Source: Candidatus Parcubacteria bacterium
Lineage (GTDB): Bacteria > Patescibacteriota > Minisyncoccia > Phycocordibacterales > Zambryskibacteraceae
Assembly (NCBI GenBank): GCA_019658995.1
Contig: JAIFWN010000003.1
Span: forward strand, 2,436-66,435
Reading direction: 5' to 3'
Length of the DNA stretch: 64,000 nucleotides
Made by a program: the position numbers and the translations under genes
Shown here: piece after piece, positions 22,908-46,155 of the stretch
Numbering within the stretch: position 1 is the stretch's first letter
Layout: the number at the start of each line of letters is the position of its first letter
Notes under the pieces: model-generated
Told to the model about the DNA's origin: nothing
The model's database searches: none
Seen by the model: only the letters and a program-made list of their open reading frames with translations

Positions 22908-22928
22908 TAGGATTACTAATCAAAAAAT

Positions 22929-23486: not shown

Positions 23487-23490
23487 AAAC

Positions 23491-24339: not shown

Positions 24340-24348
24340 TCTAAATGT

Positions 24349-27211: not shown

Positions 27212-30200
27212 TTGAAAAAGCACTCTTCTCTGCATCTCATATTCACATTCTTTCTCACGGCGATTCTTATCTACTTGGGCGGATCGCCGCCCGCCGTGAT
27301 GTCCGCCGGAGGAGTGCCATCTATCATAAGTTACCAGGGGCGGCTTGCTGACTCGGCAGGCAACCTCCTCGGCAGCTCATCGGGAACCACATATTTTTTT
27401 GCCTTTTCTATTTGGGATAATGCCACGGTCGGTTCCGGCACGAAGCTCTGGCCTGTGGCCACAACCAGTGTGCCGACGACGGTCAAGTCGGGCGTATTCA
27501 ATGTCAATATTGGTGATACGGCAGGAGGTTATCCGGATACTCTTAACTACACCTTCACCAGCCCTAATATTTTCCTCCAGGTTGATGTGTCATCAAATGG
27601 CACAACCTGGGAAACAGTTTCTCCGCGCCAAAGACTCTCATCGGCTGTATTTGCACAGGTAGCAGAGGCGGTAGTGGGGGCTTCTTCGACCGTAACTACT
27701 CTCACCAATACCAATTTCTACGGTACCTTTGCTACTACGACCAGTGCTACCACTACCAACCTTTTTGCCAATTTTTTAAACAGCGCAACCGTCACAGCTA
27801 GCGGCTTGGGAACATTCGGCAATTTCTTGGCGCTCGGCTCTACGACTCTTCAGAACTTTACTGCACTAAATTCGACAACGACGAATGCCACCACTACGAA
27901 TATTTATGTGAATGGCAAGCTCTACGGAGCCAACCTCACCAACTGCAATAGCAATGCAGACAAACTGCTCTGGGCCAATGGCCTCTTCTCCTGTGGGACA
28001 GATGGAGGCGGAGGTGGATCGGACGTGGATTGGCTCTTCTTCAACAACACCGGAATAAGACTTGGCACTACTACCAACCAGGTCTTGATCGGGTTCAATG
28101 CCACTTCATCTCTGGCTATGCTTGAGCTCAATGTGCAAGCAGGCAAGATACCGCTCTTCATCGGATCGTCGACGGAGTTGTTCAAGATAGACGACTATGG
28201 CCTTGTCTCGGCGAAAAATCTTCTCCTTGACTCTTCAACCACCCTTCAGAACTTCACCTTCGTGAGCGCTACGGGATCACAGGCCACCACTACGAATCTC
28301 TTTACCAACACACTTTTCTCGACTACCGCTTCGTCTACGAATCTCTTTGCCAATACGGCCACCTTCGGCACTCTCGTAGCAGCGAGCTTCAATCCTGCCA
28401 ATATTACGACTGGTAACCTGCTTGTCACTGGCTCATCCACTCTCCAGAATTTCACCTTTATCAACGCCACAGGTTCCCAGGCTACTACCACCAACTTCTT
28501 CTCAACGGGTATCTTCTCAACGATTTTAAATAATTCAGGCCTAGCCACTCTTGGAAATATATTGTCCTCTGGATCATCGACGCTTCAGAACTTCACTTTC
28601 ATTAACGCTACCGGAACTTCCGCTACGACTACCAACTTCTTCTCCATCAATGCTTCGACCACCAACCTCTGGGCTAATGTCATCAGTTCCGGCCTCATTA
28701 ACGGCCAGACTATTACATCCGCTGCTAACTTTACCGGTACTCTAAATGCGACTGGAGGTTTAACAACTCTCTCAAATTTGTTAGTGGCAGGCTCTTCCAC
28801 TCTCCAGAATTTCACCTTTGCTAACGCTACCGGTTCTCAAGCTACGACTACTTACTTCTTCAGTACAAACCTCTTTGGCACGAATGGAAATCTAACAAAC
28901 TTGATATTCAGTCTGGCTACCGGTACCTCTGCCACCACCACTAATTTTTTCAGCACTACCGCCTCTTCTACTAACCTCTTCGCAACCACACTCAATACCG
29001 GTAATATTACCTCCACCGCTCTTGCTACCCTCGCCAATCTCTTAGTATCTGGATCTTCCACTCTCCAAAATTTCACTTTCGTTAACGCCACTGGCTCGCA
29101 AGCCACTACCACGAATCTCTTCTCTGCCAACCTCTTTGGCACTACAGGTTTCCTCACTAACTTACAGCTAAATGGTTCCTCAACTCTCCAAAACTTTACT
29201 TTCTCTAACGCTACCGGCACTTCCGCTACGACTACTAACTTCTTCGCCACCAATGCTTCGACCACCAACTTATGGGCCAACATCATATCTTCGGGTTTGA
29301 TAAACGGCCAAAACATTACAAGTGCCGCTAACTTCACTGGGACTCTCAATGCTACTGGCGGATTGACAACGCTTTCAAACTTGCTTATATCTGGATCTTC
29401 CACTCTCCAGAACTTTACCTTCGTCAACGCCACCGGGACCTCCGCCTCCACTACCAACTTCTTCGCCATCAATGCTTCCACCTCAAACCTCTTCGCCAAC
29501 TCTCTCACAGTAGGGAATATCACTTCAATCCAGGAAACAATCACCAACCTTCTGGCCCTAGGTTCTTCGACCCTGCAGAACTTTACCGGACTTAATTCGA
29601 CCACTACCAATGCCACTACCACCCGTTTAGCCATCATTTCTCTCAACTGCGGGACTTTTACTAACAATGGCAAGCTCACCACTAACGCTGATGGCACGGT
29701 TTCCTGCAGTGATGATATCGCTGCCACACAGGATGTCGATTGGATATTCTTCAACAACACCGGAGTGCGTCTGGCCACGACCACAAACCAAGTTCTCATC
29801 GGTGCAAGCGCCACATCATCTCTAGCCAATCTTGAGATCAGCTTCCAGACAGCAGCTAAGGGCTCACTTCTCACTCTCGGTTCATCGACTCTACAGAATT
29901 TCACCTTCATCACAGCCACCGGCACTGCGGCTACCACTACCAACTTCTTCGGCACTAATATCTTCTCTACGATTCTTAATAACTCGGGTCTGGCGACCCT
30001 GGGAAATTTGCTTGTATTAGGATCCTCAACTCTTCAGGATTTCACTTTCGTTAACGCCACTGGCTCGCAAGCCACTACAACCAGCCTCTTTTCGGCGAAT
30101 GTATTTGGTACGAATGCTAACCTGACAAATCTTATCTTCAGTCTGGCTACCGGCACCAGCGCCACAACTACTAACTTGTTCTCTGGCATATCAAGTTCGA

Positions 30201-33200
30201 CAAATCTCTTCTCTTCAGTTTTGACAGTCGGTAGCAATGCGCTCTTAGTTAACTCAAGCGGCTTTGTAGGCATTGCTACCACTTCGCCATTTGCCAGGCT
30301 TTCGGTAATGCTCAATGCCGGAGATACTAATACCACCGTTTTCGCAATCGGTTCCACCACTGCTACGGGCTTTACAAATCTCTTGAGAGTGGACAATCAA
30401 GGTTCAACTACAGTTAAGACCCTGCGTTTCGACGATACCGGTGCCAACAACCTTTTCTGGACGATACGGGAGGAGTCAGGCAATAACCTGGAAATTTTCT
30501 ATCCCTCGATTCGTCGTGGCGTGTTTGTTAACGCTGGCAATGGAGGCTTTCTCGGAATTGGTACTACCTCAATGCAGGGCTTCTCGTCATTCATCGTTGC
30601 CTCGGCTACCCCGACTATGGAGATTATGGACAACAACGGTCCTGTGGATCTGAAGCACTGGCTCATAAGCGCGGATGCCGGGAAATTCTTCATAGGCAGA
30701 GCGACGGATGACCTTTTATCAACTACCACTTACTTCTTCGTTGACGGCAATATGGGCGGCAATATAGGTCTCAATGAGGCATCACCGAACTTCAGACTCG
30801 AGGCGACAGGTACCAGCGGCAGCGGCTACTTCGGTATTACCAACGCCTCTGACGGCGACGTATTCAGCATTATCTCCACCGGTAATGTGGGAGTCAATGA
30901 TGCCACCCCGGACTTTAAGTTCGAGAGTAACGGCTCGAACGCGAGCGGCTACTTCGGCATCACTAACTCGAGTGATGGAGATATCTTTGCGATAGACGGG
31001 AGCGGAGAAGTGGGCATCGGCATAGTGAATCCGTCATACGCTCTCCATATAGTGGATGATACGAACGAGACGCTCGCCATTGAAACCATTCACACAACCG
31101 GTACATCTCTTGTAATCAAGAACACCAGCGGCGGCGGACACTCCTTTTCTCTCACCAGTACGGGCTCCGACGGCTCGCCAGGCAACTTCGTCATTAGAGA
31201 CAATACGGCGAACTTTACCGGCTTTGATCTTGCCGGAGCCACCGGCAACCTGCAGATTACGCGCGATGCCTACTTCGGCTGGTCATCGAACGCAAGCGAT
31301 GCAAAGGTTGCGGCCGATACTATACTCTCGCGCATCTCTGCCGGGGTTGTTGGCACGGCAAATCTTATACTCTCCGGCAATTCGACCACGTCGCAGGCTA
31401 CTACCACGAACTTCTTCTCGGCAACTATCTTCTCTGATCTTCTAAACAACTCCGGTTTGGCCACACTCGGCAATATGCTTGTTCTCGGCTCGTCCACTCT
31501 CCAGAATTTCACATTCGGCAACGCCACTGGCTCTCAAGCCACCACGACGAACCTTTTCTCGACTAAGGGTAGCTTCACCACTATCTGCTTCACCGGAGAT
31601 GTTTGCCGAACGTCATGGCCATCGACTGGCGGAGGCGGGGGATCAGACACCAATTGGCAATTCTTTAATAATTCTGGCATCCGGCTTGCTACGACTACCA
31701 ACCAGGTTCTCATTGGCGCTTCGGCTACCACATCTCTCGCTAACCTCGAGATCGCCTTCCAGACAGCAGCCGGAGGATCTCTGTATGCTCTTGGCTCCAC
31801 CACCCTTAATAATTTCGCCTTTGCTAACTCAACCGGATCTCAAGCAACTACTACCAACCTATTCTCCACCAATATCTTCAGTACGACAGGAAACGTCTCA
31901 GGCACTCAAACAGCGGGGAATTTGCTCGCCCTCGGATCTTCAACCCTTCAGAACTTCACATTTAGGAACGCTACTGGGAGTGATGCGACTACAACAAATT
32001 TCCGTGTTTCTAATAGAGCAAATATCGTGGATCTCACGGTTGGTAGTATAGAGGGCCTTAATTCAGCATCCTTTAATGTTACAGATGATGCCTCGGGTAT
32101 ATTCGAAGTCAATTCAGCGTCAGTAGGAGATGTATTCACTGTGAATGATTTTGGAACCCCCTATTTTTCAAGGAATCTCGGACTTGGCACATCGACGCCG
32201 TCTGCCAACCTGACGATACAGGATCCCAATCCAGAAATAAATTTCTATGAAAGTAATAACTTCGCCAAAACCAGGCTGGTTCAGCTTGGCGATTCGGAAT
32301 TCGATATCGTTATGTATGACGGTTCGGGTGTTGTCACAAACGCTCTCAATATGAATTTCAACGGCGAAAACGAATACCTTTCCGGTATGTCTGGAACACT
32401 CGGCAGCAATGCAAGCGCTCGGCATGTGTTCTACATCTCACAAAGTGAAGTTGGGGGATTCGATTACAGAGGACTTTTCTCTATTGGTAGTACTAAAACA
32501 AGCGGTGGAACAGCTGTGGCGGCACTCGATGTGACTGGAAACGGTTACATAAGCGGCAAGCTAGGAGTAGGTACAACTACTCCGTATGCAGGCCTCCAAA
32601 TAGCCACATCTACAAGGCCGCAACTCATACTTACGGATATTCTGGCCGGACCTAATGTCAAACATTTCTATGCATCTTCTACGAACGGCCGTCTTGCCAT
32701 AGGCAATCTAAGCGATAATCTCGGATCCTTTACCGATATCATGGACTTGAGCTCGACAGCGATAAACTTCACGCTTGGCAGCGAGGAAAATAAAAGTTTC
32801 AATATCAAAGATGGCCCCGGGCTAACCACTCTCTTTTCGGTTGATAACGATACCAAGACAGTGGGTATCGGGACCACTACGCCCGGAGCTAAATTAGAAG
32901 TGGCCAAAACCTCTTCTGGAGCTACCTCAGATGCTCTCTTCCTTTCCAACCAGGCCTCCGCAACCAATACAGCTACCCGCCTCTCCTTCAGAGCCCAGGA
33001 TATAAAGAATATTGCTACCACTACAGCTTCAATCGTCGGTTTATTGGGTAAGAATTTCGATCAAGCTACCTCAACCCTGATCTTCTCCACACAAAATGCC
33101 GGCACCCTCACCGAGCAAATGCGATTAACTGACACAGGCCTCCTGCTGATCGGATCAACTACACTGCAAAATTTTACATTCAGAAATGCTACCGGCACCT

Positions 33201-35455
33201 CGGCTACAACCACCAACTTCTTCGCTACGAACGCTTCAACCACTAACTTTTTCGCTAACGTAATAAGTTCAGGTCTTATCAATGGCCAGACAATATCAAG
33301 CGCTGCGAACTTCACAGGCACTCTCAATGTCACAAGCGGTCAGACAACCGTATCAAATCTTTTGGCGACGGGATCCAGCACCCTCCAGAACTTCACTTTT
33401 GTTAATGCTACTGGCACTTCGGCTACAACCACCAACTTCTTCGCTACAAATGCTTCCACGACTAACCTCTTCTACGCCAACGCTGTCGGAGGAGCGGAGA
33501 CCCTGAGTGGATTGCTGACGGCTGCCAATATCCGATCGAACGGCTCGTCCACCCTCCAGAACTTCACATTTGTAAATGCGACGGGTTCCCAGGCTACGAC
33601 TACAAATTTGTTCTCAACTAACTTATTTGGCACGACAGGCAACTTCTCTGGTCTCTTAACTCTCGGAAATCTTTTGCTCACAGGCTCTTCGACCTTCCTG
33701 AATCTAACTTTTGTTAATGCTACCGGCACTTCCGCCACAACTACAAATCTCTTTGCCACCACGCTCTTCTCAACCACTCATAACAACTCGGGTCTGATCA
33801 CTACAGGCAATCTCCTGGCATCAGGCTCTTCAACTTTGCAGAGTTTTACAGCAATTAATTCGACAACATCACAGGCTACCTCGACCAATTTCTTCTCAAC
33901 GAATATCTTCGGCACAACAGGAAATATTTCTGGACTCTCGACTTTCGGCAATCTCCTTGTGTCCGGGTCGAGCACGCTTCAAAACCTCACCTTCTCCAAT
34001 GCGACGGGCTCGCAAGCTACCACAACAAATATCTTCTCCACTAACATCTTCGGCACGACTGGAAATGTTTCCGGTCTGGCTACTTTGGGTAACCTCCTCG
34101 TCTCCGGCTCCTCCACTCTTCAGAACTTCACTTTCGTTAATGCTACCGGCACTTCCGCTACAACAACAAACTTCTTCGCTACGAATGCTTCTACTACCAA
34201 TCTCTTCTTCACGACCAGCAGGGGAGGATCGGAGACCCTCACTGCCACTCTCACCGCCAATAATCTTCTTGCTAACGCTTCTTCCACTCTCCAAAACTTC
34301 ACATTTGTTAACGCCACAGGCTCACAAGCGACGACAACGAATCTGTTTGCAACCAATCTTTTTGGCACTACGGGAAATATATCGGGTACGCAGACAGTGG
34401 GGAATTTACTCTCGCTAGGCTCATCAACCTTACAAAACTTCACATTCTCTAACGCCACAGGCACTTCAGCGACCACAACCAACTTCTTTGCTACCAATGC
34501 TTCGACCACAAACTTCTGGGCAAACGTTATATCTTCTGGTCTTATCAATGGCCAAACCATTACCTCTGCAGCCAACTTCACCGGAACTCTTAATGTTACA
34601 AGCGGACAAACTACACTCTCAAATCTTCTTGTTACTGGGTCTTCAACCCTCCAGAACTTCACCTTCATAAACGCGACGGGTTCCCAGGCTACTACAACAA
34701 ATTTATTTGCCACAACTCTATTCTCAACAACACACAATAATTCGGGTCTTGGTATATTTGGCAATATTCTGTCCCTTGGCTCATCTACTCTTCAGAATTT
34801 CACGTTTGCTAATGCTACCGGTTCCCAGGCGACAACAACCAGTCTTTTTGCGACGAAAGCAGACTTTACAACTCTATGTATAGCTCAGGATTGTAAAACA
34901 GCCTGGCCTACGTCCGGAGGAGCTTCCACTGATAAGTTTGCAACTTCAACAAACGGATTGGCAATTTATCCGAACAGCGCCGCGGCAGTAGTGATAGGCG
35001 GCAGTGCCACAACCACAACCGGAGCAGAGCTCGAAGTACTCGGGGATATCTATGTTTCTGGTTCCTCAACCCTTCAGAACTTTACCTTCATAAACGCCAC
35101 AGGAACTTCAGCGACCACTACTAATTTATTTAGTACTACGGCTTCTTCTACAAACCTCTTCGCTACTGCTATCCAAGCCGGTACGGCCACATTCAATAAT
35201 ATTCTTGGGAACAGCTCCTCCACTCTCCAAAACTTCACCTTCGTCAACGCTACGGGTACATCGGCCACCACCACCAATTTCTTCGCTACCAACGCCTCTA
35301 CTACCAACTTCTTCTTTACCACATCGAACGGCGGCAACGAGACCCTTACTGCTCGAACTTCACATTCATCAACGCCACTGGCTCCCAGGCTACGACCAGT
35401 AACCTATTCAGTACGAATATATTTGGTACCACCGGCAATTTGTCTGGACTCCTGA
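27212..35455 (+). CDS. Giant repeat-rich surface protein, N-terminal segment (2747 aa), most likely one gene with 35440..41061
   Basis: TTG start. N-terminal hydrophobic helix (LHLIFTFFLTAILIYLGG). Then dozens of diverged ~40-45-aa repeats (GSSTLQNFTFxNATG[ST]xATTTN[LF]F[AS]T) and three Cys-pair/DVDWxFFNNTGxRLxTTTNQVLIG modules. Ends in frame-shifted repeat sequence. Confidence 0.7.
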   Translation: MKKHSSLHLIFTFFLTAILIYLGGSPPAVMSAGGVPSIISYQGRLADSAGNLLGSSSGTTYFFAFSIWDNATVGSGTKLWPVATTSVPTTVKSGVFNVNIGDTAGGYPDTLNYTFTSPNIFLQVDVSSNGTTWETVSPRQRLSSAVFAQVAEAVVGASSTVTTLTNTNFYGTFATTTSATTTNLFANFLNSATVTASGLGTFGNFLALGSTTLQNFTALNSTTTNATTTNIYVNGKLYGANLTNCNSNADKLLWANGLFSCGTDGGGGGSDVDWLFFNNTGIRLGTTTNQVLIGFNATSSLAMLELNVQAGKIPLFIGSSTELFKIDDYGLVSAKNLLLDSSTTLQNFTFVSATGSQATTTNLFTNTLFSTTASSTNLFANTATFGTLVAASFNPANITTGNLLVTGSSTLQNFTFINATGSQATTTNFFSTGIFSTILNNSGLATLGNILSSGSSTLQNFTFINATGTSATTTNFFSINASTTNLWANVISSGLINGQTITSAANFTGTLNATGGLTTLSNLLVAGSSTLQNFTFANATGSQATTTYFFSTNLFGTNGNLTNLIFSLATGTSATTTNFFSTTASSTNLFATTLNTGNITSTALATLANLLVSGSSTLQNFTFVNATGSQATTTNLFSANLFGTTGFLTNLQLNGSSTLQNFTFSNATGTSATTTNFFATNASTTNLWANIISSGLINGQNITSAANFTGTLNATGGLTTLSNLLISGSSTLQNFTFVNATGTSASTTNFFAINASTSNLFANSLTVGNITSIQETITNLLALGSSTLQNFTGLNSTTTNATTTRLAIISLNCGTFTNNGKLTTNADGTVSCSDDIAATQDVDWIFFNNTGVRLATTTNQVLIGASATSSLANLEISFQTAAKGSLLTLGSSTLQNFTFITATGTAATTTNFFGTNIFSTILNNSGLATLGNLLVLGSSTLQDFTFVNATGSQATTTSLFSANVFGTNANLTNLIFSLATGTSATTTNLFSGISSSTNLFSSVLTVGSNALLVNSSGFVGIATTSPFARLSVMLNAGDTNTTVFAIGSTTATGFTNLLRVDNQGSTTVKTLRFDDTGANNLFWTIREESGNNLEIFYPSIRRGVFVNAGNGGFLGIGTTSMQGFSSFIVASATPTMEIMDNNGPVDLKHWLISADAGKFFIGRATDDLLSTTTYFFVDGNMGGNIGLNEASPNFRLEATGTSGSGYFGITNASDGDVFSIISTGNVGVNDATPDFKFESNGSNASGYFGITNSSDGDIFAIDGSGEVGIGIVNPSYALHIVDDTNETLAIETIHTTGTSLVIKNTSGGGHSFSLTSTGSDGSPGNFVIRDNTANFTGFDLAGATGNLQITRDAYFGWSSNASDAKVAADTILSRISAGVVGTANLILSGNSTTSQATTTNFFSATIFSDLLNNSGLATLGNMLVLGSSTLQNFTFGNATGSQATTTNLFSTKGSFTTICFTGDVCRTSWPSTGGGGGSDTNWQFFNNSGIRLATTTNQVLIGASATTSLANLEIAFQTAAGGSLYALGSTTLNNFAFANSTGSQATTTNLFSTNIFSTTGNVSGTQTAGNLLALGSSTLQNFTFRNATGSDATTTNFRVSNRANIVDLTVGSIEGLNSASFNVTDDASGIFEVNSASVGDVFTVNDFGTPYFSRNLGLGTSTPSANLTIQDPNPEINFYESNNFAKTRLVQLGDSEFDIVMYDGSGVVTNALNMNFNGENEYLSGMSGTLGSNASARHVFYISQSEVGGFDYRGLFSIGSTKTSGGTAVAALDVTGNGYISGKLGVGTTTPYAGLQIATSTRPQLILTDILAGPNVKHFYASSTNGRLAIGNLSDNLGSFTDIMDLSSTAINFTLGSEENKSFNIKDGPGLTTLFSVDNDTKTVGIGTTTPGAKLEVAKTSSGATSDALFLSNQASATNTATRLSFRAQDIKNIATTTASIVGLLGKNFDQATSTLIFSTQNAGTLTEQMRLTDTGLLLIGSTTLQNFTFRNATGTSATTTNFFATNASTTNFFANVISSGLINGQTISSAANFTGTLNVTSGQTTVSNLLATGSSTLQNFTFVNATGTSATTTNFFATNASTTNLFYANAVGGAETLSGLLTAANIRSNGSSTLQNFTFVNATGSQATTTNLFSTNLFGTTGNFSGLLTLGNLLLTGSSTFLNLTFVNATGTSATTTNLFATTLFSTTHNNSGLITTGNLLASGSSTLQSFTAINSTTSQATSTNFFSTNIFGTTGNISGLSTFGNLLVSGSSTLQNLTFSNATGSQATTTNIFSTNIFGTTGNVSGLATLGNLLVSGSSTLQNFTFVNATGTSATTTNFFATNASTTNLFFTTSRGGSETLTATLTANNLLANASSTLQNFTFVNATGSQATTTNLFATNLFGTTGNISGTQTVGNLLSLGSSTLQNFTFSNATGTSATTTNFFATNASTTNFWANVISSGLINGQTITSAANFTGTLNVTSGQTTLSNLLVTGSSTLQNFTFINATGSQATTTNLFATTLFSTTHNNSGLGIFGNILSLGSSTLQNFTFANATGSQATTTSLFATKADFTTLCIAQDCKTAWPTSGGASTDKFATSTNGLAIYPNSAAAVVIGGSATTTTGAELEVLGDIYVSGSSTLQNFTFINATGTSATTTNLFSTTASSTNLFATAIQAGTATFNNILGNSSSTLQNFTFVNATGTSATTTNFFATNASTTNFFFTTSNGGNETLTARTSHSSTPLAPRLRPVTYSVRIYLVPPAICLDS

Positions 35456-35800
35456 CTCTCGGCAATCTTTTGCTTACTGGTTCCTCCACTCTCCAAAACT
35501 TCACCTTCGTTAATGCTACCGGTACTTCCGCTACAACAACAAACTTCTTCGCTACAAATGCTTCCACAACCAATCTCTTTGCCACAGCTATACAAGCCGG
35601 TACCGCAACGTTTAACACCATTCTCGCCAATGCTTCCTCCACTCTCCAAAACTTCACCTTCGTCAACGCTACGGGTACATCGGCCACCACCACCAATTTC
35701 TTCGCTACCAACGCCTCTACTACCAACTTCTTCTTTACCACATCGAACGGCGGCAACGAGACCCTTACTGCTCGTACCAATGCCACAACCACAGGGACTC
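27660..35800 (+). repeat. Coding tandem repeat array, about 135-bp (45-codon) diverged units
   Basis: Recurrent GGNTCNTCNACNCTNCAGAAYTTCACNTTC cores at irregular ~120-140 bp spacing. Units differ at DNA level except one exact 140-bp duplicate. Confidence 0.8.
35216..35774 (+). repeat. Exact 140-bp direct duplication (35216..35355 and 35635..35774), 419-bp period, spanning the ORF break
   Basis: The two blocks match at every base by line-by-line comparison. The 419-nt period makes the copies fall in different frames. Confidence 0.9.
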
Positions 35801-38800: not shown

Positions 38801-41061
38801 CATCAACCGGTTGTCTCGGTACGGGCACTACTGCTATCTATGATCCAGTCTCCCATCTGTCCACTATTACCGGTCCTGGTTTATCAACAAATGTCGGCCT
38901 TGGAGCTTACGCTCTGCCTCGTCCTGACGGCACATGGCTTCTTGTAAATGGCGGCGGCGGAGTATCACTCGCCGGTCAGAGTGCTACACAAATATATATA
39001 GAACGAGGTGGAGGGTTAACCGCTACCGGTGACCAGTCAACAATTGGCGCATTTATCTCTGGTCCGACGATGAACGTGGCGGCAAATAGCGGAGGTACGG
39101 CCTTTCAGCTTCCTGACGGCAAGTTCGCCATCATAACGGGAGCTGCGACTACCACTACATCCAACAGTATGCAGTTCTACGATGCAGGATGGGTAGCGAG
39201 TGGCATATACAGGTCTGAGCAATTTGACCTCTCTCCAGTGGGGACGAAGCTCGATTCCAACTCAACTCTTAACTGGAAGTCGAACATGATATCATCCGCT
39301 GTGGGCGGTATCTCCGCCGAAGTAAGGAGCGCTCCCACACAAGCTGCTCTGGCAACGAGTACTACGAGGGAGATACCGATATCGGGCGGACTCATCAATC
39401 CGGCCGCCACCGACACCTGGCTCCAGATAAACTTCAACTTCAGGAGAAGCTTCCCATCTTACGGAGGTATATACAGCGACGTATGGTACTCTTCCGCATC
39501 TATGAGCTATCCACTTCGTCCTGTTGTTACTCCGACTTTGTATGAATTTAAGATAACAAAAGATGATGATCTTTTGACTCTTAACGCCGATGGCTTGGCG
39601 CTCTTCAGAGTCAACTCTGGCGGAGACGTCTATACATCGACAGGAGGCACCATCAACACCTCCGGCGCAGACCTTGCCGAGCGCTATACCTCGCAAGAGC
39701 CTCTCGACTTCGGCGAAGTGGTCTCGGTCGATCCGATGAATAATCATGCGGTCAAGAAAACTTCTTACCAATATCAGCCCGATGCACTCGGTGTGGTCTC
39801 GACCGATCCGGGCTTCGTGGCGGGCGCTTATACTGAAGATTCTTATCCAATAGCTCTTGTCGGCCGCGTGCCGGTAAAGGTTTCGACGGAAAACGGCTTC
39901 ATCCGCGCCGGCGACAAGCTCACAGCAGCGAGCGTCCCTGGCTATGCCATGAAGGCTACTCTTGCCGGACATGTTATCGGCCACGCACTCGAGAATCTTA
40001 AGAGCGATAAGCTTGTAGACTGCCCGGCAAGCAGTATCGTCATACCCGGCAGGAAGTGCGGAGTTGTGATGATGTTCGTCAGCCTTGGGGATTTCATAGG
40101 AGAACCGGTTGGCGATGCCATGATGGAGTACAACAGTTTGCACAATATAGATATTTCGAGCTTTGCTACTACATCTGTGATGCTCGGCGATGAAGCTATA
40201 GGCATTGTACCGGGTACGAGGGAAGCCAACGTATTGAACTTCCTAGAAAACCTGAGGAAGGATAGGGAAGCCGGCTCTTCTTACCGCTCCGAAGTATTTG
40301 CCGATAGAGTATCGGCTGTTTCAGACATTATCGCGCCAAACATTTTTACCCGTATTCTCAAGGCTGAAAGTGTGGAAGGACTGACATTTAAAAGCGATAA
40401 GGTCATTGCCAATGCTTTGGTAGTAAATAGCATCGGTGCTGAGGGCACGACCACGCTAGCTCTTATGGGTGATGTGAACTTCTTCGGTCGACCTTACTTT
40501 ACTTCGGACACTGCTGGCAGTGCCATCATAAAGAAGGGCGCTAAAACAGTGGAGATCATCTTCGACAAGGAGTACATCGATACGCCGATAGTGAGTTCCA
40601 CTATCGCTCTTGAGTCGGCTTCGACGAGCGAAGCACAGGAAGAAGAGATATTCACTCAAGATATCCGCTTCATAGTCTCAAGAAAGAGTGTTCACGGCTT
40701 TACCATAATCTTGAACAAGCCGGCTCCAAACGACATCGGCTTCAGCTGGATAGCTCTGGCGGTGAAGGACTCAAAACTCTTCACCTCAAGAGAAATACCG
40801 CTTGCCGAGACTACTCCGATCACCGCAGTTGTAGAATCTGTGCCTCCTCCGCCAACAACTCCGCCAGTCTCAAATGAGCCGACTTCTACAACCACTATGC
40901 CAGTTGAGGCAACAAGCACTCCATCTATGATAGAAACCACGCCTACAACTACTCCTTCCGTATTACCATCTGAACCAGAATTAACTCCCCAAGTCGAGCC
41001 CGAATCAACACCTATAGTTGATGTTTCTCCATCTGAACCATCCCCGCAAAGCGGGCCATAA
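35440..41061 (+). CDS. Giant surface protein, C-terminal segment (1873 aa): repeats, Kelch-like propeller blades, C-terminal globular region, Pro/Thr-rich tail
   Basis: The track starts at a TTG inside continuing repeat sequence. About 12 blade-like units of pattern [RK]xDG[KT][FYW]hhhxGG ... YDP. Ends with a P/T/S/E-rich low-complexity tail. Confidence 0.7.
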   Translation: MSGLLTLGNLLLTGSSTLQNFTFVNATGTSATTTNFFATNASTTNLFATAIQAGTATFNTILANASSTLQNFTFVNATGTSATTTNFFATNASTTNFFFTTSNGGNETLTARTNATTTGTLNVNGLQFADNGANNRYWTITEDAGNNLQISYPVATDVRINQNFLVSGSTTLQNFTSLNATTAQATTTALAISSLNCSSGAQLLQTNSSGSVICGTDDGGAGSTPGGNAGAVQFNDGASGFTGNENYLFFSNANKLFGIGSSTPTAILSASSTTALLPVAIFDQRSTGGLLTLQRSGVDKFTVSNDGGLNIYGATSDSVKTTTGTGKSSDFDFTGSTIATASTTATNGYVTIIDGTISGDGIVSATTTTTGTVIGNGAQVIIRSDGQYVIIQGGGTATASIWDGFKSGSGAASMATTTIATGGTVNTGAIAVKRPDGRYVIFHGGAANLSSIFDPYNITAAVAGPPPGGACTTGTNAFLRPDGKYVVICGGTTGWGVYDPSQAPPGSLTAGTAIGGNWGAGAHALSRDDGTFLVYQGGGSNTFIYNPFTNTMTAGPTAPAAIAAGALSVRRQDGTFLTLPGAANTSYSYNPVSTTTPNGQGAFVTNFGVGPSSSLSDGSTILWRQDGKYTLITANTTVLNVVDPGSGSIVPKFTNPGAPLALSGNAGAGITAFMLPNGRYAILRGGGQAIDTYDMNFATGLSSGNVQNSYYESECIDNTNLSLDSTLNWNKNDEGTISAQIRTVTSPQDCSTATYRTIQSSGSLIGATTTANNRVQFKFFFQRELPRFLDQEWGVRKTAQTRYRRVNADPVLYDVTVDNSTSLHRTQFDFGNAVSSTTAPSSGPVAVNITNDTNRNNALALAAGVGYGTTINTANNGYYNGAFGFAQPLSTPTASTTVVMKRPDGKFTIIAGNNTINSNVYDPALATSTAATAAANKPTVQIGNGALAFKRPDGKFLIVMGNTSSTTVSSVGATTTNIYDPVTDTYVAGPNLATGGSSNGAGAGAAVIPLPSGRVLIIHGNATNATSVYDPVQNTMTAGPNPTAVVGYGSIVIPRPNGQYMFIPGMVSLTSCTVNTTVNLFDPYAMVFTTNAGVANAGGTGPGAFALQRSDGTWLIVRGGASTGCLGTGTTAIYDPVSHLSTITGPGLSTNVGLGAYALPRPDGTWLLVNGGGGVSLAGQSATQIYIERGGGLTATGDQSTIGAFISGPTMNVAANSGGTAFQLPDGKFAIITGAATTTTSNSMQFYDAGWVASGIYRSEQFDLSPVGTKLDSNSTLNWKSNMISSAVGGISAEVRSAPTQAALATSTTREIPISGGLINPAATDTWLQINFNFRRSFPSYGGIYSDVWYSSASMSYPLRPVVTPTLYEFKITKDDDLLTLNADGLALFRVNSGGDVYTSTGGTINTSGADLAERYTSQEPLDFGEVVSVDPMNNHAVKKTSYQYQPDALGVVSTDPGFVAGAYTEDSYPIALVGRVPVKVSTENGFIRAGDKLTAASVPGYAMKATLAGHVIGHALENLKSDKLVDCPASSIVIPGRKCGVVMMFVSLGDFIGEPVGDAMMEYNSLHNIDISSFATTSVMLGDEAIGIVPGTREANVLNFLENLRKDREAGSSYRSEVFADRVSAVSDIIAPNIFTRILKAESVEGLTFKSDKVIANALVVNSIGAEGTTTLALMGDVNFFGRPYFTSDTAGSAIIKKGAKTVEIIFDKEYIDTPIVSSTIALESASTSEAQEEEIFTQDIRFIVSRKSVHGFTIILNKPAPNDIGFSWIALAVKDSKLFTSREIPLAETTPITAVVESVPPPPTTPPVSNEPTSTTTMPVEATSTPSMIETTPTTTPSVLPSEPELTPQVEPESTPIVDVSPSEPSPQSGP

Positions 41062-41069
41062 AATAAAAT

Positions 41070-41471
41070 ATGACAAAAAAATATAAACTTGCTTTAAGTG
41101 TTGCTCTAGTTTTGGTGATGGGCGTGTTTGTTGGAGTAGGGATCGTAAAGGCGACTGGAAGTAACCAAATAACCACTTTTAATTTAATAGGGGATAATAA
41201 GTTCAAATTTCATGTAGTTAGCTTCGATTGCTCTACATCTACTGACGAAACTTTCACATTACCTACAACCGTTCAGAATAACGGAGTGATTCAAGTAGTA
41301 AAAACAGATTCAACCTCTTGCTCTGGTAGAAAGATAACTCTCCTACCATCTTCGGGAGATATGATTGAAGGCGGACCCGAATATGTTATTTTTTCTGGTA
41401 CAGGTTCTGCAGTTACATTTGTTGCTGACGGAGCAAATAGAAATTGGTGGGCAATTAGTAGCTATAGATAG
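41070..41471 (+). CDS. Small secreted hypothetical protein
   Basis: 133 aa with signal/anchor helix (LALSVALVLVMGVFVGVGIV) and a Cys-containing beta-rich domain. Confidence 0.45.
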   Translation: MTKKYKLALSVALVLVMGVFVGVGIVKATGSNQITTFNLIGDNKFKFHVVSFDCSTSTDETFTLPTTVQNNGVIQVVKTDSTSCSGRKITLLPSSGDMIEGGPEYVIFSGTGSAVTFVADGANRNWWAISSYR

Positions 41472-41523
41472 TAAATTAGTCATAATCTAGCTGGTCATAC
41501 TTGGCTCTGCTATAATTCGCTCA

Positions 41524-41919
41524 ATGGAAAATTTGAAGCAGGAATTCAAGAGTCTGTCTAAGAAGTTAAGAATGGTATTTCTGGCAGTTCTGACAGTCGG
41601 GATCCTTAGCTTAATCTCAACGGCCGTATTGGCAGAGAAGCTCCAGAAGGCTTCGGATCCGGCTCTGGCTGCGCAGGAAGAGATACAGAAGGTCGTGGCT
41701 GAAGTGGGAAGGTTCATAATCCTGCCTGACGATGAGACCCCAACCATGGCAACTGTCTCGGACCCCTCGAAGCTTAGCGGCCAGCCGTTCTTCGAAAATG
41801 CGGAAGCTGGTGATAAGGTTCTCATCTATACCATATCCAGGAAGGCTATACTCTGGAGACCGTCTACAAAGAAAATAATCGAGGTAGCCTCTATCAATGT
41901 CACTTCTCCAGCACAATAA
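41524..41919 (+). CDS. Membrane-anchored hypothetical protein
   Basis: 131 aa, N-terminal coiled segment plus TM helix; TATAAT 8 nt upstream. Confidence 0.45.
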   Translation: MENLKQEFKSLSKKLRMVFLAVLTVGILSLISTAVLAEKLQKASDPALAAQEEIQKVVAEVGRFIILPDDETPTMATVSDPSKLSGQPFFENAEAGDKVLIYTISRKAILWRPSTKKIIEVASINVTSPAQ

Positions 41920-43243
41920 CAGAGCACTTAAGGTTCTCATTCTCTCTTTCGTCTTTGCCGGAATATTTTCCACAGCTAGGGCGCAAAACTTCTCTTCCGG
42001 CGGCTATTCCGTACTCGCTCCAGTTATCGCTCCCGGCGGACACTCTACCTCCCCAAGCTACTCTCTCATAAGCGTAATATCCCAGCTTGCCATAGGCACT
42101 TCATCGGCAACCGCTTTTAATCTATCAAGCGGTTTCCTGTATTATCCCTTCATAACCACGCCTATTCTCGCGGCCACTCCGGGTAATGCGCAGGTAGTGC
42201 TCAATTGGACGGCTGCCGACGGTGTGCTTGGCTGGTCGGTCGGCTCGTACTCGGTGGGACAAACTGTTACGGCGGGCAGTGATTACTCATACACTAATGT
42301 CGGCAATGTACTCACCTCGACTCGTACAGGACTTTCCAATGGCACTACTTACTACTTTATAATCCGGGTCATCGACGCGGCTGGCAATACAGTAGCTACT
42401 TCGACTGAAGTCTTTGCTATGCCCGTCGCTCCGGCTGGCGGAGGAGGTGGAGGCGGGGGCGGAGGTGGCGGAGGAGGTGGAGGCGGGGGCGGAGGATACA
42501 CTGGCGGTGGTACTGGGAGCGGCAGAGTGAACTTCTCAGGACGGGCCTATCCGCGAAGTACGGTGACGGTTCTTAAGGACGCACAAGTTGTCATTACTAC
42601 CGTGGCTGATGCTGCAGCCAACTTCGCAGTCTCACTTATGAACCTCTCGGGAGGTAATTACTTCTTCTCATTATATAGCGAAGACAACAATGGCGTGCGC
42701 AGCAGTCTCCTGACCTTTCCGGTTTCCGTTACCGATGGCTCTACCATGAATATCGGAGGCATCTTCATCACTCCGACCATTGCCGTAGACAAAAGCGAAG
42801 TCAAAAGGGGAGACAATATCTCTATCTTTGGCCAGACGGCCGCCCAGAGTGATGTCACGATCCAGGTTAACTCCGACGAGCCCTTCTTCGCCAAAACCAA
42901 GGCTGATGCCTCCGGTGGCTATCTCTATAATTTCGACACGGTGCCACTTGAGTATGGCGACCACAGCACCAAATCCAAGAGCGCTTTGTCGGGTGAGATC
43001 AGCTCATTCAGCTCCGTTGCCGCCTTCAAAGTCGGCACACAGAACGTGCTTATAGGCAACTTGCCGAAGACTTGCAATAAAAAGGGCGATACCAACAAGG
43101 ACTGCAAGGTTAACCTTGTGGACTTCTCTATAGTAGCCTTCTGGTACAAGCGCCCCAATCCGCCGGCCAATGTCGATCTGAACGGCGATAAAAAAGTGGA
43201 CCTCATAGACTTTTCCATACTGGCTTATAACTGGACCGGATGA
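41897..43243 (+). CDS. Secreted FN3-like/Ig-like protein with C-terminal dockerin-type tandem Ca-binding repeats
   Basis: Signal peptide, FN3-like segment (PGNAQVVLNWTA ... TTYYF), 40-residue Gly tract, Ig-like region. C-terminal duplicated dockerin type I segments GDTNKDCKVNLVDFSIVAFWY and DLNGDKKVDLIDFSILAYNW. Confidence 0.65.
   Translation: MSLLQHNNRALKVLILSFVFAGIFSTARAQNFSSGGYSVLAPVIAPGGHSTSPSYSLISVISQLAIGTSSATAFNLSSGFLYYPFITTPILAATPGNAQVVLNWTAADGVLGWSVGSYSVGQTVTAGSDYSYTNVGNVLTSTRTGLSNGTTYYFIIRVIDAAGNTVATSTEVFAMPVAPAGGGGGGGGGGGGGGGGGGGGYTGGGTGSGRVNFSGRAYPRSTVTVLKDAQVVITTVADAAANFAVSLMNLSGGNYFFSLYSEDNNGVRSSLLTFPVSVTDGSTMNIGGIFITPTIAVDKSEVKRGDNISIFGQTAAQSDVTIQVNSDEPFFAKTKADASGGYLYNFDTVPLEYGDHSTKSKSALSGEISSFSSVAAFKVGTQNVLIGNLPKTCNKKGDTNKDCKVNLVDFSIVAFWYKRPNPPANVDLNGDKKVDLIDFSILAYNWTG
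42431..42490 (+). repeat. Tandem 30-bp x2 GGN repeat encoding the poly-Gly linker
   Basis: GGCGGAGGAGGTGGAGGCGGGGGCGGAGGT is repeated twice head-to-tail. Confidence 0.9.
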
Positions 43244-44010
43244 TGAAATACCCAATATATATAGCATCTCTTATGCTTCTGCTCCCTGTGACTCTCTCCG
43301 CAGCTACGGCTGTTATAGAAGTTGATACGATATCGGAATCCGTGAACGCACTCGAAGCTACTGTCCGGATCCCTTTAGGTATGGAAGTTAAAGAAGTCCG
43401 AAGCGGTGATTCGGTAATAGTCTTTTGGATCACTCCGCCTACGCTGTCGACATCGACAAATTCCATTTCCTTTGCCGGATTTACTCCGGGCGGGTTCAAG
43501 GGCAAACGGACGGTCTTCTCTGTTGTCGGTGAGTTCGACAAGAGCGATCTCTCCGGCATAACATTCAGCGCGGTGCAGGCGCTTAAGAACGACGGTGAGG
43601 GCACGTCTGCCTCGGTCAGGCTTAGCGCCTCTCTTTCAGAATCGGTAGAGGATACCATCGTGCCGGAAACATTTGCTCCTCTTCTGTCGCGATCCGACGA
43701 TGTCTATGCCGGCCGGCTGTTCGTTTCCTTCTCGGCTCTCGATAAGAATACCGGTGTAGCCAAGTTTGAGGTAGCCGAGACCTTCTTCGGCCGACCTGAT
43801 GACGAGGACTGGGTGGAGGCCGCAAGTCCGTATGAAGTCAAAGACAATCTGCTCTTGAAGAGAGTTTATATAAAAGCTACTGACCATAAGGGCAATTACA
43901 GAGTAGAGTCTGTTTCTCTGCCGTACAGGCTCCCCGCAGAGATTTTCCTTGCTATAATTATTGGAGCGTTATGTATACTCGCTCTTCGCTATTCAAAGCG
44001 CTCTTCGTAA
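43240..44010 (+). CDS. Cohesin-like domain surface protein with C-terminal TM anchor
   Basis: Signal peptide; ~140-aa beta-sandwich (VNALEATVRIPLGMEVKEVRSGDSVI ... ISFAGFTPGGFKGKRTVFSVVGEF ... ITFSAVQALKNDGEGT); C-terminal TM helix. Start overlaps the dockerin gene stop by 4 nt (ATGA). Confidence 0.5.
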   Translation: MMKYPIYIASLMLLLPVTLSAATAVIEVDTISESVNALEATVRIPLGMEVKEVRSGDSVIVFWITPPTLSTSTNSISFAGFTPGGFKGKRTVFSVVGEFDKSDLSGITFSAVQALKNDGEGTSASVRLSASLSESVEDTIVPETFAPLLSRSDDVYAGRLFVSFSALDKNTGVAKFEVAETFFGRPDDEDWVEAASPYEVKDNLLLKRVYIKATDHKGNYRVESVSLPYRLPAEIFLAIIIGALCILALRYSKRSS

Positions 44011-45728
44011 TAATCTTCTTCGTCGCGCCGGTTCTGGCCAGTGCCGCTACGCTCTTCATTTCGCCGGAATCAGATTCATACGCTGCGGGAAAAACTTTCT
44101 CTATAAGAGTCAGGGTTTCTTCGCCTCAGGCTATCAATGCGGTATCGGGATCTCTCACCTTTCCGACGGACAAGCTGCAGGTTACATCGGTTTCTAAAAC
44201 CGGCTCGATACTGACTCTGTGGGTTGCCGATCCTTCATACTCCAACTCTGATGGCAAGGTGAGCTTCGAAGGTGTTGTACCTAACCCGGGATGGAGCGGT
44301 ACGGGTGGAACTGTCGCTACCGTCAGCTTCCGCGTAGTCGGATCAGGCTCCGCCAAGGTTTCCTATACGGCCGCATCGGTCCTGGCAAACGATGGCAATG
44401 GTACAGAGCTCTGCTACAATTGCGGTCTCTCAGCGACATACACCCTAGGCGGAGCTCCAGCTCCGGTAGTCCCGGCTGAGGAAGTCGAGCCTTCGGGTAC
44501 TCCCGGCGCTCCCAATATCACTTCGTCTTCGCACCCGGTGCAGAGCAAATGGTATGGGGAGGAAGATGCCAAGTTCTCCTGGACGAACGAGCCGGGCGTG
44601 ACGGCAACCAGAGTGCTTCTGGGAAAGAGCGCCAATTCCACTCCGACCGCGGAGTACACTCCGCCCATAACTAATAGGGAGATAGACAATATCGAAGATG
44701 GCATATGGTATTTCCACGTACAGAACAAGAATAGTAAAGGTTGGGGTTCGACCGCCCACTACATGATCAAGGTCGATACCACTGATCCTGACTCATTTGT
44801 AATGAAAGAGGTGGCGCGTCCCGATGATACCGATCCGAGAGTCAGACTGTCGCTCTCTGCCTCCGACGATACCTCGGGTATAAAGTCCTTCGGCATTCAA
44901 GTGGACAAGGGTGAGATGCAAGACTGGGTCGAAGACGGTACCGGCATATATGTGACAGATCCTCTGCCGCCGGGCGAGCATACAATTTTTGCCAGAGCTT
45001 ATGACGAGGCGGGGAACTTCGCTACGGCTTCGGTTAATGTGGAGGTGAAGGGAATCCCGGCACCCAAGATCACTTCGTATACCGACAAGATTTCCGGATC
45101 GGCGCCAATCATTGTAAGAGGTACAGCTTTGCCAAACTCGATAGTTAGAGTCACTCTTACTAAGGGCGGATCTCTCGGCGGGATCTTCGGCTCCGACTCC
45201 GGAGAAATATCACCGTTTACCAAGGATACCAAATCCGATGACTCCGGCGATTTCTCACTTTCTCTGGATACCAAGGGCATGGAGAGCGGAGCATACGACT
45301 TGACCGCCATAGCTATAGACCGTCGAGGCGCCCAAAGCGAGCCGACCGCACCGAAGACCGTGCTCATCAACGCCGGATGGCTCCGCTCTATAGGTTCGAC
45401 GATCCTTACCGTCCTGGCCATAGCGGTGCCAGTGCTTGCACTCCTCTTCCTCCTCTTTATCATATTCATGAGGGGTTTCCATACCGTGAGGATGACCAAC
45501 AGGAAGTTCAGGGCCGAACTTCATAATATAGAGCATCTGGTCGATCAATCCTTCGTCCTTCTCAAGGAAGACGTCGAGGACTCTATCAGGCTATTAGAGA
45601 AGACGAAGTCGAGGAGGAAATTGACCGAGGAGGAGGAGGCTATAATTGATAGGCTCAGACAGAATCTCCGCGATGCCGAGAAGGTCATACACGGTCAGGT
45701 GAGAAGAATAGAGAAAGAAATTGGCTAA
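43971..45728 (+). CDS. Cohesin-domain surface protein with Ig-like domains, TM anchor and cytoplasmic coiled-coil tail
   Basis: N-terminal domain matches cohesin consensus features (AGKTFSIRVRVSSPQAINAVSGSLTFPTDKLQVTSVSKTGSIL ... GKVSFEGV ... GTVATVSFRVVGSGSAKVSYTAASVLANDGNGTEL). Later Ig/FN3-like segments, one TM helix near residue 480, charged coiled-coil C-terminus. Confidence 0.6.
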   Translation: MYTRSSLFKALFVIIFFVAPVLASAATLFISPESDSYAAGKTFSIRVRVSSPQAINAVSGSLTFPTDKLQVTSVSKTGSILTLWVADPSYSNSDGKVSFEGVVPNPGWSGTGGTVATVSFRVVGSGSAKVSYTAASVLANDGNGTELCYNCGLSATYTLGGAPAPVVPAEEVEPSGTPGAPNITSSSHPVQSKWYGEEDAKFSWTNEPGVTATRVLLGKSANSTPTAEYTPPITNREIDNIEDGIWYFHVQNKNSKGWGSTAHYMIKVDTTDPDSFVMKEVARPDDTDPRVRLSLSASDDTSGIKSFGIQVDKGEMQDWVEDGTGIYVTDPLPPGEHTIFARAYDEAGNFATASVNVEVKGIPAPKITSYTDKISGSAPIIVRGTALPNSIVRVTLTKGGSLGGIFGSDSGEISPFTKDTKSDDSGDFSLSLDTKGMESGAYDLTAIAIDRRGAQSEPTAPKTVLINAGWLRSIGSTILTVLAIAVPVLALLFLLFIIFMRGFHTVRMTNRKFRAELHNIEHLVDQSFVLLKEDVEDSIRLLEKTKSRRKLTEEEEAIIDRLRQNLRDAEKVIHGQVRRIEKEIG

Positions 45729-46126: not shown

Positions 46127-46155
46127 TTGACAAGAAAAGCGGGTTGGAATATAAT
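46127..46155 (+). promoter_or_regulatory. Consensus sigma70-type promoter TTGACA-17-TATAAT upstream of the RRM gene
   Basis: TTGACA at 46127-46132, 17-nt spacer, TATAAT at 46150-46155. That leaves a ~105-nt leader before the ATG at 46264. Confidence 0.5.

Follow-up and report, generated by a model that had tools for sequence, protein, structure and literature searches.

Positions 27212-45728 of a 64-kb stretch of DNA from a metagenome-assembled Candidatus Parcubacteria genome (contig JAIFWN010000003.1; the whole stretch is called the window below) hold a block of surface-protein genes on the + strand, which we named g1, for the gene of a giant fibre, and g2 to g6. We propose that this block encodes a two-layer cell-surface assembly, in which a conserved cohesin-dockerin scaffold (g4, g5 and g6) is combined with an exchangeable trimeric fibre cassette (g1 and g3), and we give this proposal about an even chance of being right. 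It is based on the conservation of gene order around g4, on the domain content of the scaffold proteins, and on the predicted folds of the fibre.

Gene order was surveyed by scanning one genome per species. Relatives of g4 were found in at least 201 species genomes, all of them Patescibacteria, and the best 80 loci by g4 match were kept. Of the non-redundant loci, 74 extend for 3 kb or more beyond g4 on its downstream side; in these, g5 followed on the same strand in 73, g6 in all 74, and both together in 73. A very large gene was also a frequent neighbour: the largest one encoded at least 1,000 amino acids (aa) in 45 of 83 loci, and 14 more loci had an open reading frame (ORF) of 400-999 aa cut at the locus edge, which makes 59 of 83, whereas of 163 complete genes in the more distant flanks only 1 reached 1,000 aa (Fisher test, p about 6e-36). 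In distant lineages, the g4-g5-g6 arrangement was kept amid unrelated flanks. Flanking genes in common with the window were limited to msrB in 4 loci and PEBP in 1 locus, and neither DUF192, RRM nor msrB qualifies as a member of the unit, as these are shared only with close relatives. In locus L047, PEBP and msrB are direct neighbours of each other downstream of g6 (10253-11061), whereas they bracket the block in the window, which indicates that the block moved as a unit. The first-pass annotation of the window had supposed that all genes of the block form one functional unit, to be recognised by conserved synteny. This was borne out for g4-g5-g6 and for the presence of a large neighbour; g2 does not belong to the unit, and g3 goes with the fibre.

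The dockerin stalk and its two membrane anchors

The g4 product starts with a signal peptide (ending in ARA, before Q), followed by an N-terminal region that is variable and gives a weak fn3 signal, then a poly-Gly run of 20 residues, two immunoglobulin (Ig) domains recognised as Big_6 (28.6 bits, cut-off 27.6), and a C-terminal dockerin (Pfam PF00404, aa 396-442, 25.2 bits, cut-off 22.9). Both calcium loops of the dockerin, DTNKDCKVNLVDF and DLNGDKKVDLIDF, are present, and they are invariant across orthologues. As these two are the sole dockerin motifs in the six frames of the window, g4 is the only dockerin-bearing protein there. The dockerin assigned by the first-pass annotation was thus confirmed, with a Pfam score above the cut-off and both loops in place.

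The two halves of g4 differ in their conservation. The Ig-Ig-dockerin half is 55-73% identical across Candidate Phyla Radiation (CPR) lineages, and still 55-60% identical to the Magasanikbacteria, Microsyncoccus and Uhrbacteria proteins in pairwise BLAST comparisons. It is represented by 491 cluster representatives at E≤1e-30, and is always located at the C-terminus, in proteins of about 230-680 aa. The N-terminus comes in at least two types, one fn3-like and one Cys-rich (L005 and L006), with a poly-Gly linker in both.

A cohesin was recognised in g6 (PF00963, aa 34-141, 27.0 bits, cut-off 24.1), the match being visible only when the N-terminal 210 aa were scanned alone; about 20 g6 homologues have a precomputed PF00963 match. 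For g5, the window protein itself gave no Pfam match, and the assignment comes from its family: Cohesin was matched in 7 of 51 orthologues, where no other family was matched, and the family profile matches cohesin structures of Ruminococcus flavefaciens (5aoz, E 4.8e-4). Searches of the PDB with the g5 and g6 sequences returned nothing. When g5 and g6 were aligned with hhalign, the cohesin and the OmpL47-type domains were both aligned, with a probability of 100% and an E value of 1.2e-40, and g5 is, as judged from this alignment, a two-domain paralogue of g6. Hydropathy places a transmembrane helix at aa 231-249 of g5 and at aa 481-499 of g6, and in g6 the helix is followed by a charged tail of 85 aa. 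This tail is conserved across lineages (alignment A5), with near-invariant F528, L531, L542, R549, L551, E555 and E570, and corresponds to no recognised family. The first-pass annotation had called two cohesin anchors in the membrane and a secreted dockerin partner. We retain both anchors, g6 on its Pfam score and g5 on family-level evidence, and the domain logic of the whole holds.

For g6, 235 family members were detected, with lengths of about 570-600 aa and identities of 34-70% across more than 95% of the protein; their sources are Parcubacteria/Paceibacterota, Magasanikbacteria, Uhrbacteria, Staskawiczbacteria and Ca. Microsyncoccus archaeolyticus. In pairwise BLAST comparisons with the Magasanikbacteria, Microsyncoccus and Uhrbacteria proteins, identity was 36-38% for g6 and 31-39% for g5, and orthology was confirmed for each gene in turn. 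By sequence identity, g5 and g6 are KW796_01485 and KW796_01490 of Candidatus Parcubacteria, both annotated as 'hypothetical protein'. A separate observation concerns the number of anchors: three to five cohesin-like paralogues follow g4 in L076, L071, L062, L037, L015 and L018, sometimes with the long anchor placed before the short ones.

It had also been suggested that related genomes might fuse a dockerin onto homologues of the giant protein. Among all ORFs of 84 loci, dockerin loops were found only in g4 orthologues, bar two isolated single-motif matches in other ORFs, and no such fusion was seen. Display of the fibre through a dockerin is not supported, and the fibre has no recognisable plug for a cohesin.

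The giant fibre and its companion gene g3

As assembled, the fibre gene is split into two ORFs of 2,747 and 1,873 aa (ORF1 and ORF2; coordinates in Table 1). Several observations indicate that the two belong to a single gene. The start of ORF2 falls within the 'SSTLQNFTF.NATG' repeat that ORF1 also has, and ORF2 lacks its own signal peptide. The 140 nucleotides (nt) at 35216-35355 recur with 100% identity at 35635-35774, while the preceding 180 nt are only about 70% identical, and this pair is the sole exact repeat of at least 60 nt in the 13.85-kb gene, in which DNA identity between other repeat units reaches about 84% at most. Removal in silico of the 419 nt between 35356 and 35774 restored a single uninterrupted ORF of 4,476 aa. 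Finally, the equivalent region is in one frame in the relatives L001, L012 and L032, whose ORFs are at least 2,170, 2,233 and 2,032 aa long, respectively. We conclude that the locus has six genes. The first-pass annotation had counted seven, and the seven + strand ORFs do lie exactly where it placed them. We take the 419-nt segment to be an artefact of assembly, or else a very recent duplication by which the gene became a pseudogene. A k of 141 is a common maximum k-mer in metagenome assemblers, and the 140 nt of the repeat equal k-1 for this value, so that the pattern looks like a k-mer-graph artefact, a recent duplication being also possible.

The protein consists of an N-terminal domain, which large proteins of other loci also have at their head, followed by a long shaft of repeats, two propellers and a C-terminal module (Table 1). 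Kelch propellers had been read in it by the first-pass annotation. Pfam and NCBIfam, applied to the full-length giant ORFs and to ten sub-segments, gave no usable match, Kelch included, and the support for the fold comes from profile and structure comparisons. The propeller 2 profile matches the Kelch-domain protein 6ryv of the PDB (E 3.2e-5), and the distant homologue P0177 carries Pfam Kelch families; the propeller 1 profile (alignment A2) gave weak propeller matches only. An AlphaFold2 (AF2) model of ORF2 aa 960-1790, built from 39 sequences, has a mean predicted local distance difference test score (pLDDT) of 76, with propeller blocks mostly at 70-94; it begins inside blade 2, and so covers 5.5 of the 7 sequence blades of propeller 2. 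Searched with Foldseek, this model found GlxA and galactose oxidase as best matches (E about 3e-10), then Kelch matches up to E 1e-8, and the Kelch domains of KEAP1 and KLHL20 gave template modelling scores (TM-scores) of 0.62-0.67, normalised on the target.

With such best matches, a copper-radical oxidase of the galactose oxidase/GlxA type was considered, and ruled out. These enzymes use a Cys-Tyr cross-link and Tyr/His/His ligands, whereas among the invariant columns of the propeller alignment (A3) there is one His and no Cys, and a copper-radical site is absent for this reason. The propellers are more likely a binding module than an oxidase of this kind, to judge from model and alignment. 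They are alike to the propellers of GlxA (4unm), galactose oxidase (1gof) and KEAP1 in their predicted fold and in the seven-blade repeat pattern, and unlike them in the lack of a Pfam Kelch match and of a conserved Cys/Tyr/His copper site, and in occurring as two propellers within a fibre.

The carbohydrate oxidases found among the best structural matches of the propeller model, added to a cohesin and a dockerin, which are the defining modules of cellulosomes, could suggest that the block encodes a miniature cellulosome, with polysaccharide-degrading enzymes tethered by the cohesin-dockerin pair. The anchoring is indeed comparable to that in Clostridium thermocellum and Ruminococcus flavefaciens, where a C-terminal calcium dockerin of type I with two F-hands, borne by a secreted protein, meets the cell-bound cohesins of an anchoring scaffoldin. 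The domain content largely refutes this reading, which we hold to be highly improbable. Pfam and NCBIfam detected no glycoside hydrolase, carbohydrate-binding module (CBM) or other carbohydrate-active enzyme domain in the six proteins, so that there is neither enzymatic cargo nor CBM; each anchor has one cohesin and there is no multi-cohesin scaffoldin; the single dockerin protein carries Ig and fn3 domains only; and the propeller lacks the copper-radical site. Also unlike cellulosomes, anchoring is by a C-terminal transmembrane helix, not by SLH domains or sortase, the partner of the cohesins is an Ig/fn3 stalk, and the trio is a conserved unit in small-genome Patescibacteria.

Beyond the propellers, the fibre ends in a module that has the fold of the C-terminal auto-chaperone domain of phage phi29 gp12, and that also resembles phage decoration proteins and tailspike C-termini. 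Its PHROG matches are C-terminal in the phage proteins concerned, among which one is named as a tail fibre. The start of the module, GA-DLAE-RY, was aligned by the family profile to residues 1-7 of 3gqh, DFAEYFE, in a weak match (E 0.6). The DLAE found there, at the very start of the domain, corresponds to the cleavage-site motif D-F-A-E of phi29, of which the D and E are presumably catalytic, and its Glu is conserved at 90% or more in alignment A6. In phi29, the C-terminal domain acts as an intramolecular chaperone and, once the trimer has folded, is set free by autoproteolysis (PMC4690869). We conclude that the fibre end belongs by structure to the phi29 gp12 chaperone fold class, and that it does not belong by sequence to Pfam Peptidase_G2. 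The fold class is that of the autocleaving C-terminal chaperone of the phi29 gp12 pre-neck appendage, a tailspike (PDB 3gqh/3suc, MEROPS G2). Unlike gp12, the fibre is a cellular protein of about 4,500 aa with a signal peptide; Kelch propellers take the place of the beta-helix enzyme domain; a helical linker, a lectin-like domain and a Pro/Thr tail extend beyond the chaperone; there is no Pfam Peptidase_G2 match; and cleavage is putative.

One might then ask if the fibre and its neighbours are what is left of an integrated phage, a prophage or phage-tail remnant. The appendage-type chaperone fold and the likeness to decoration proteins and tailspike C-termini speak for such an origin. Nevertheless, a pattern scan of 2.9 million viral contigs returned, within its sensitivity, no relatives of g4 or of the fibre C-terminal module, no other phage genes are present, the flanking genes are housekeeping ones, and the block is vertically conserved across Patescibacteria together with its membrane-anchored partners. 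We therefore believe that there is very little chance of it being a phage remnant.

The phi29-like module was found in 36-37 of the surveyed loci, always immediately upstream of g3-g4. In 30 of 37 cases, the ORF that carries it is 5'-truncated because the locus or contig begins inside it. This is consistent with repeat-rich genes breaking assemblies, and accounts for the frequent assembly breaks just upstream of g4 in these genomes; complete ORFs measure 645-2,425 aa. The double propeller is present in 8-9 loci. In the g3 product, an N-terminal transmembrane segment precedes a conserved ectodomain of about 70 aa, which belongs to no known family. Its gene tracks the fibre closely: among loci with at least 3 kb upstream, 32 had both, 6 had g3 only, none had the fibre only, and 29 had neither (p about 4e-13). 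The first-pass annotation had included two small secreted proteins in its conserved unit. One of them, g2, was found in 0 of 84 loci, and the other, g3, is conserved with the fibre and not with the cohesin-dockerin core.

Two observations on the cassette are added here. The metagenome-assembled genome (MAG) CAYZGX01 contains two full fibre-g3-g4-g5-g6 copies on separate contigs (L061 and L067), either by true duplication or by strain heterogeneity within the bin. A variant of the module is found in L005 (Magasanikbacteria) and L006 (Ca. Microsyncoccus archaeolyticus), with a membrane protein of 196-258 aa in the place of g3. The upstream proteins of these two loci (one of 711 aa with DUF2341 and Laminin_G_3, the other of 488 aa) share a C-terminal region of about 130-145 aa, which is not the phi29-like module. 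Iterative searches with hidden Markov models linked neither g3 to the small proteins of this variant nor the fibre C-terminal module to the 711-aa and 488-aa proteins.

Since g3 tracks the fibre and not the core, the two layers could be independent systems that happen to be neighbours: fibre and g3 would be a phage-derived adhesin anchored by its own N-terminus, the g4-g5-g6 trio would be unrelated to it, and their adjacency would reflect co-regulation or an island of surface genes. The fibre has neither a dockerin nor any known cohesin ligand, and the position of such proteins is flexible, as in 8 loci without upstream g3 and fibre, large proteins with the same N-terminal domain as the fibre lie downstream of g6. 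Against independence, the fibre-type C-terminal module was found nowhere else than directly upstream of g3-g4 (36-37 loci), large genes are about 400-fold enriched next to the core over background, and the block changes position as a whole with respect to PEBP and msrB. Taken together, these observations make two unrelated systems rather unlikely.

A possible assembly and its role

In the two-layer assembly that we propose, the first layer would be built by g4, g5 and g6. The g5 and g6 products, as type-I membrane proteins, would each present an N-terminal cohesin on a stalk of beta domains. The calcium-binding dockerin of g4 may plug into the cohesin of g5, of g6, or of both, so that the Ig domains, the poly-Gly hinge and the variable N-terminal head of g4 would point outward from the cell. 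The second layer would be the fibre of about 4,500 residues, resembling a phage appendage and exchangeable as a cassette with g3, which would assist or hold it (being needed for the fibre, or attached to it). The C-terminal chaperone would drive trimerisation of the fibre and then probably cleave itself off between GA and DLAE. By analogy with phage fibres, the N-terminus would be proximal and the propellers near the distal, ligand-binding end, where they are likely tips for binding a host cell or a surface polymer. The whole would serve in contact with a host or a surface polymer, possibly with a role in host attachment.

Several points weigh against this proposal. The fibre has no dockerin, no LPXTG motif and no C-terminal anchor by which it could be joined to the scaffold. 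The scaffold has two cohesins and only one dockerin. Both g3 and this type of fibre are absent in 29 of the 67 loci with at least 3 kb upstream, which implies that the core works without the fibre. In this organism the fibre gene is frameshifted as assembled, and it is possibly a pseudogene. Pfam matches neither Kelch nor Peptidase_G2 (no match at E≤1 for the chaperone segment), and the sequence match to 3gqh is the weak one given above. The surveyed loci were chosen as best g4 matches and are phylogenetically related, so that the counts do not represent independent events. Lastly, the high conservation of the C-terminal half of g4 and of g6 fits a housekeeping role in the envelope at least as well.

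This last reading deserves attention. The g4-g5-g6 trio could be a spacer or anchor of the wall or S-layer, or a link across the envelope through the g6 tail, and have no part in adhesion, the large neighbours being other envelope proteins. It would account for the conservation of g6 over its full length, cytoplasmic tail included, for a C-terminal half of g4 that is unusually conservative across classes for an adhesin, for the absence of the fibre/g3 cassette in those 29 loci, and for the very large size of the g4 family. It fits less well with the high variability of the g4 head and of the large neighbours, which is the pattern expected of ligand-facing parts, with the strong enrichment of giant neighbours, and with the propellers and the lectin-like domain of the fibre, which are typical binding modules. 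On balance we regard a purely structural role as unlikely, though far from negligible.

A broader form of the two-layer proposal is put forward more tentatively, and we would not favour it at present. The two membrane cohesins and the dockerin-tipped Ig stalk might constitute a universal surface socket in Parcubacteria/Paceibacteria and ABY1, on which domesticated, exchangeable, phage-appendage-like trimeric fibres are mounted, some of them giant and propeller-tipped, and maturing by means of a self-cleaving chaperone. If this were true, a phage receptor-binding architecture would have been repurposed as an organ of host recognition. The hypervariable fibre cassette, with g3, would set the host range, while the core would be the mount, possibly with a trans-membrane signal passing through the g6 tail.

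Outside cellulosomes, cohesin and dockerin modules are present in diverse bacteria and archaea, such as Archaeoglobus fulgidus or the toxin complexes of Clostridium perfringens, as a general protein-protein plug. To our knowledge, a fixed three-gene operon made of a dockerin stalk and two paralogous membrane cohesins has not been described across a phylum-level radiation. Experimental work on host attachment has so far dealt mostly with type IV pili in Saccharibacteria, while CPR bacteria other than Saccharibacteria are the bulk of the radiation.

Two published cases can be compared with the block. SEML1_0315 of the Saccharibacterium Southlakia epibionticum is a dockerin-domain envelope protein that was essential in transposon sequencing, and for which targeting of host glycans was speculated (Wang et al. 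2023, PMC10633639). Compared by description, it resembles g4 as a Patescibacteria envelope protein with Ig-like domains and a dockerin. It differs in its size of 927 aa, and in standing alone between an alpha/beta hydrolase gene and a tRNA, with no adjacent cohesin genes listed. The dockerin-type giant proteins of Omnitrophota exceed 30,000 aa and have internal dockerin-like repeats (West-Roberts et al. preprint, 10.1101/2023.11.21.568195). Like g1, they are repeat-rich surface proteins of ultra-small, putatively host-dependent bacteria, and assemblies break inside their repeats; unlike g1, they hold the dockerin repeats within the giant itself, whereas in the window the dockerin is on the separate g4 protein. 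The first-pass annotation had presented the locus, from its sequence alone, as apparently undescribed. Our literature searches, of incomplete coverage, agree with this in that no paper on cohesin-dockerin genes in Parcubacteria or CPR was found there; the Microsyncoccus paper does not mention the module.

We see in the three-gene cohesin-dockerin core, present in at least 201 species-level genomes and with no other annotation of its members than 'hypothetical protein', a concrete candidate for the way in which tiny symbionts build an attachment surface. The core comes with a strong statistical association with hypervariable giant genes, and with a fibre identified as a relative of phage appendages that has a putative self-cleaving chaperone domain. 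Cultured Minisyncoccus/Microsyncoccus systems are available, whose genomes carry a variant of the module.

Block layout and flanking genes

Coordinates of the features are collected in Table 1.

Table 1. Positions in the window of the genes of the block and of the parts of the fibre
Feature	Positions	Strand	Description and basis
g1, giant fibre gene	27212-41061	+	assembled as ORFs 27212-35455 and 35440-41061; one 4,476-aa ORF after removing 35356-35774
Fibre N-terminus	27212-27721	+	hydrophobic signal/anchor (aa 6-24) and conserved N-terminal domain (to about aa 170); hydropathy, locus comparison
Fibre shaft	27839-35970	+	27 'SSTLQNFT' motifs, mostly 47 aa apart, with two non-repeat inserts; sequence, repeats diverged at the DNA level
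Frame-breaking segment	35356-35774	+	419 nt; ends in 140 nt (35635-35774) identical to 35216-35355
Propeller 1	36553-37530	+	seven 'R.DG.a...GG....YDP' blade repeats; sequence, paralogous to propeller 2
Propeller 2	38113-39210	+	seven blade repeats, Kelch-type beta-propeller fold; profile, AF2 model, Foldseek
Putative intramolecular-chaperone/autocleavage domain	39664-40104	+	phi29 gp12 type; begins at GA-DLAE-RY
Small beta domain	40513-40758	+	resembles H-type lectins; 3' of the helical linker
C-terminal tail	40807-41058	+	Pro/Thr-rich; sequence; no transmembrane helix, LPXTG motif or dockerin
g2	41070-41471	+	133 aa; N-terminal hydrophobic segment; lineage-specific, outside the conserved unit
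g3	41524-41919	+	131 aa; bitopic membrane protein, family uncharacterised; found together with the phage-like fibre
g4, secreted stalk	41897-43243	+	448 aa; signal peptide, variable N-terminal and fn3-like domain, poly-Gly, two Ig domains (42533-43051), dockerin (43082-43240)
g5, short anchor	43240-44010	+	256 aa; signal peptide, cohesin-like domain (about 43312-43659), OmpL47/Big_13-type domain, transmembrane helix (43930-43986)
g6, long anchor	43971-45728	+	585 aa; signal peptide, cohesin (44070-44393), Pro-rich linker, Big_13/OmpL47-type and Big_7 domains, transmembrane helix (45411-45467), cytoplasmic coiled-coil tail (45468-45725)

The short or overlapping gaps reported by the first-pass annotation were measured as 8 nt between fibre ORF2 and g2 and 52 nt between g2 and g3, with overlaps of 23 nt for g3/g4, 4 nt for g4/g5 and 40 nt for g5/g6. 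The gap between g6 and msrB is only 12 nt, and in so compact a genome tight spacing alone is no mark of the block boundaries. The bracketing housekeeping genes were both verified by Pfam, as PEBP upstream and MsrB (SelR) downstream. Export or membrane anchoring, which had been claimed for all genes, agrees with the presence of an N-terminal hydrophobic segment in each of the six products, to which g5 and g6 add a C-terminal transmembrane helix; this topology comes from hydropathy alone.

No strong internal promoter or terminator was detected in the block, in a scan that was overall at background level and therefore weakly informative. Its only notable site is a perfect sigma-70 consensus (12/12, TTGACA-17-TATAAT) at 46127-46155, just after msrB and before the RRM-protein gene. 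This pattern is compatible with a single long transcription unit, yet gives no evidence for one.

The g2 product is exported or anchored, and contains Cys. No family match was obtained for it, and no relative was present in any of the 84 related loci, that of the closest relative, L001, included. The gene seems to have been inserted, in this lineage specifically, between the fibre gene and g3.

Some 'Saccharibacteria' and 'Gammaproteobacteria' titles met in the survey (L011, L012, L014 and other third-party annotation MAG records) look like wrong automated labels on close Parcubacteria relatives. L011, for example, is 81% identical to the window for msrB and 89% for the RRM protein.

Further upstream, the region 21267-24954 encodes GroEL, a LemA-TPM domain pair and a stand-alone GGDEF diguanylate cyclase, the last of which suggests cyclic di-GMP signalling in a reduced genome. 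Near the start of the window, at 823-973, two tRNA-Thr genes with GGT and CGT anticodons adjoin each other, 1 nt apart.

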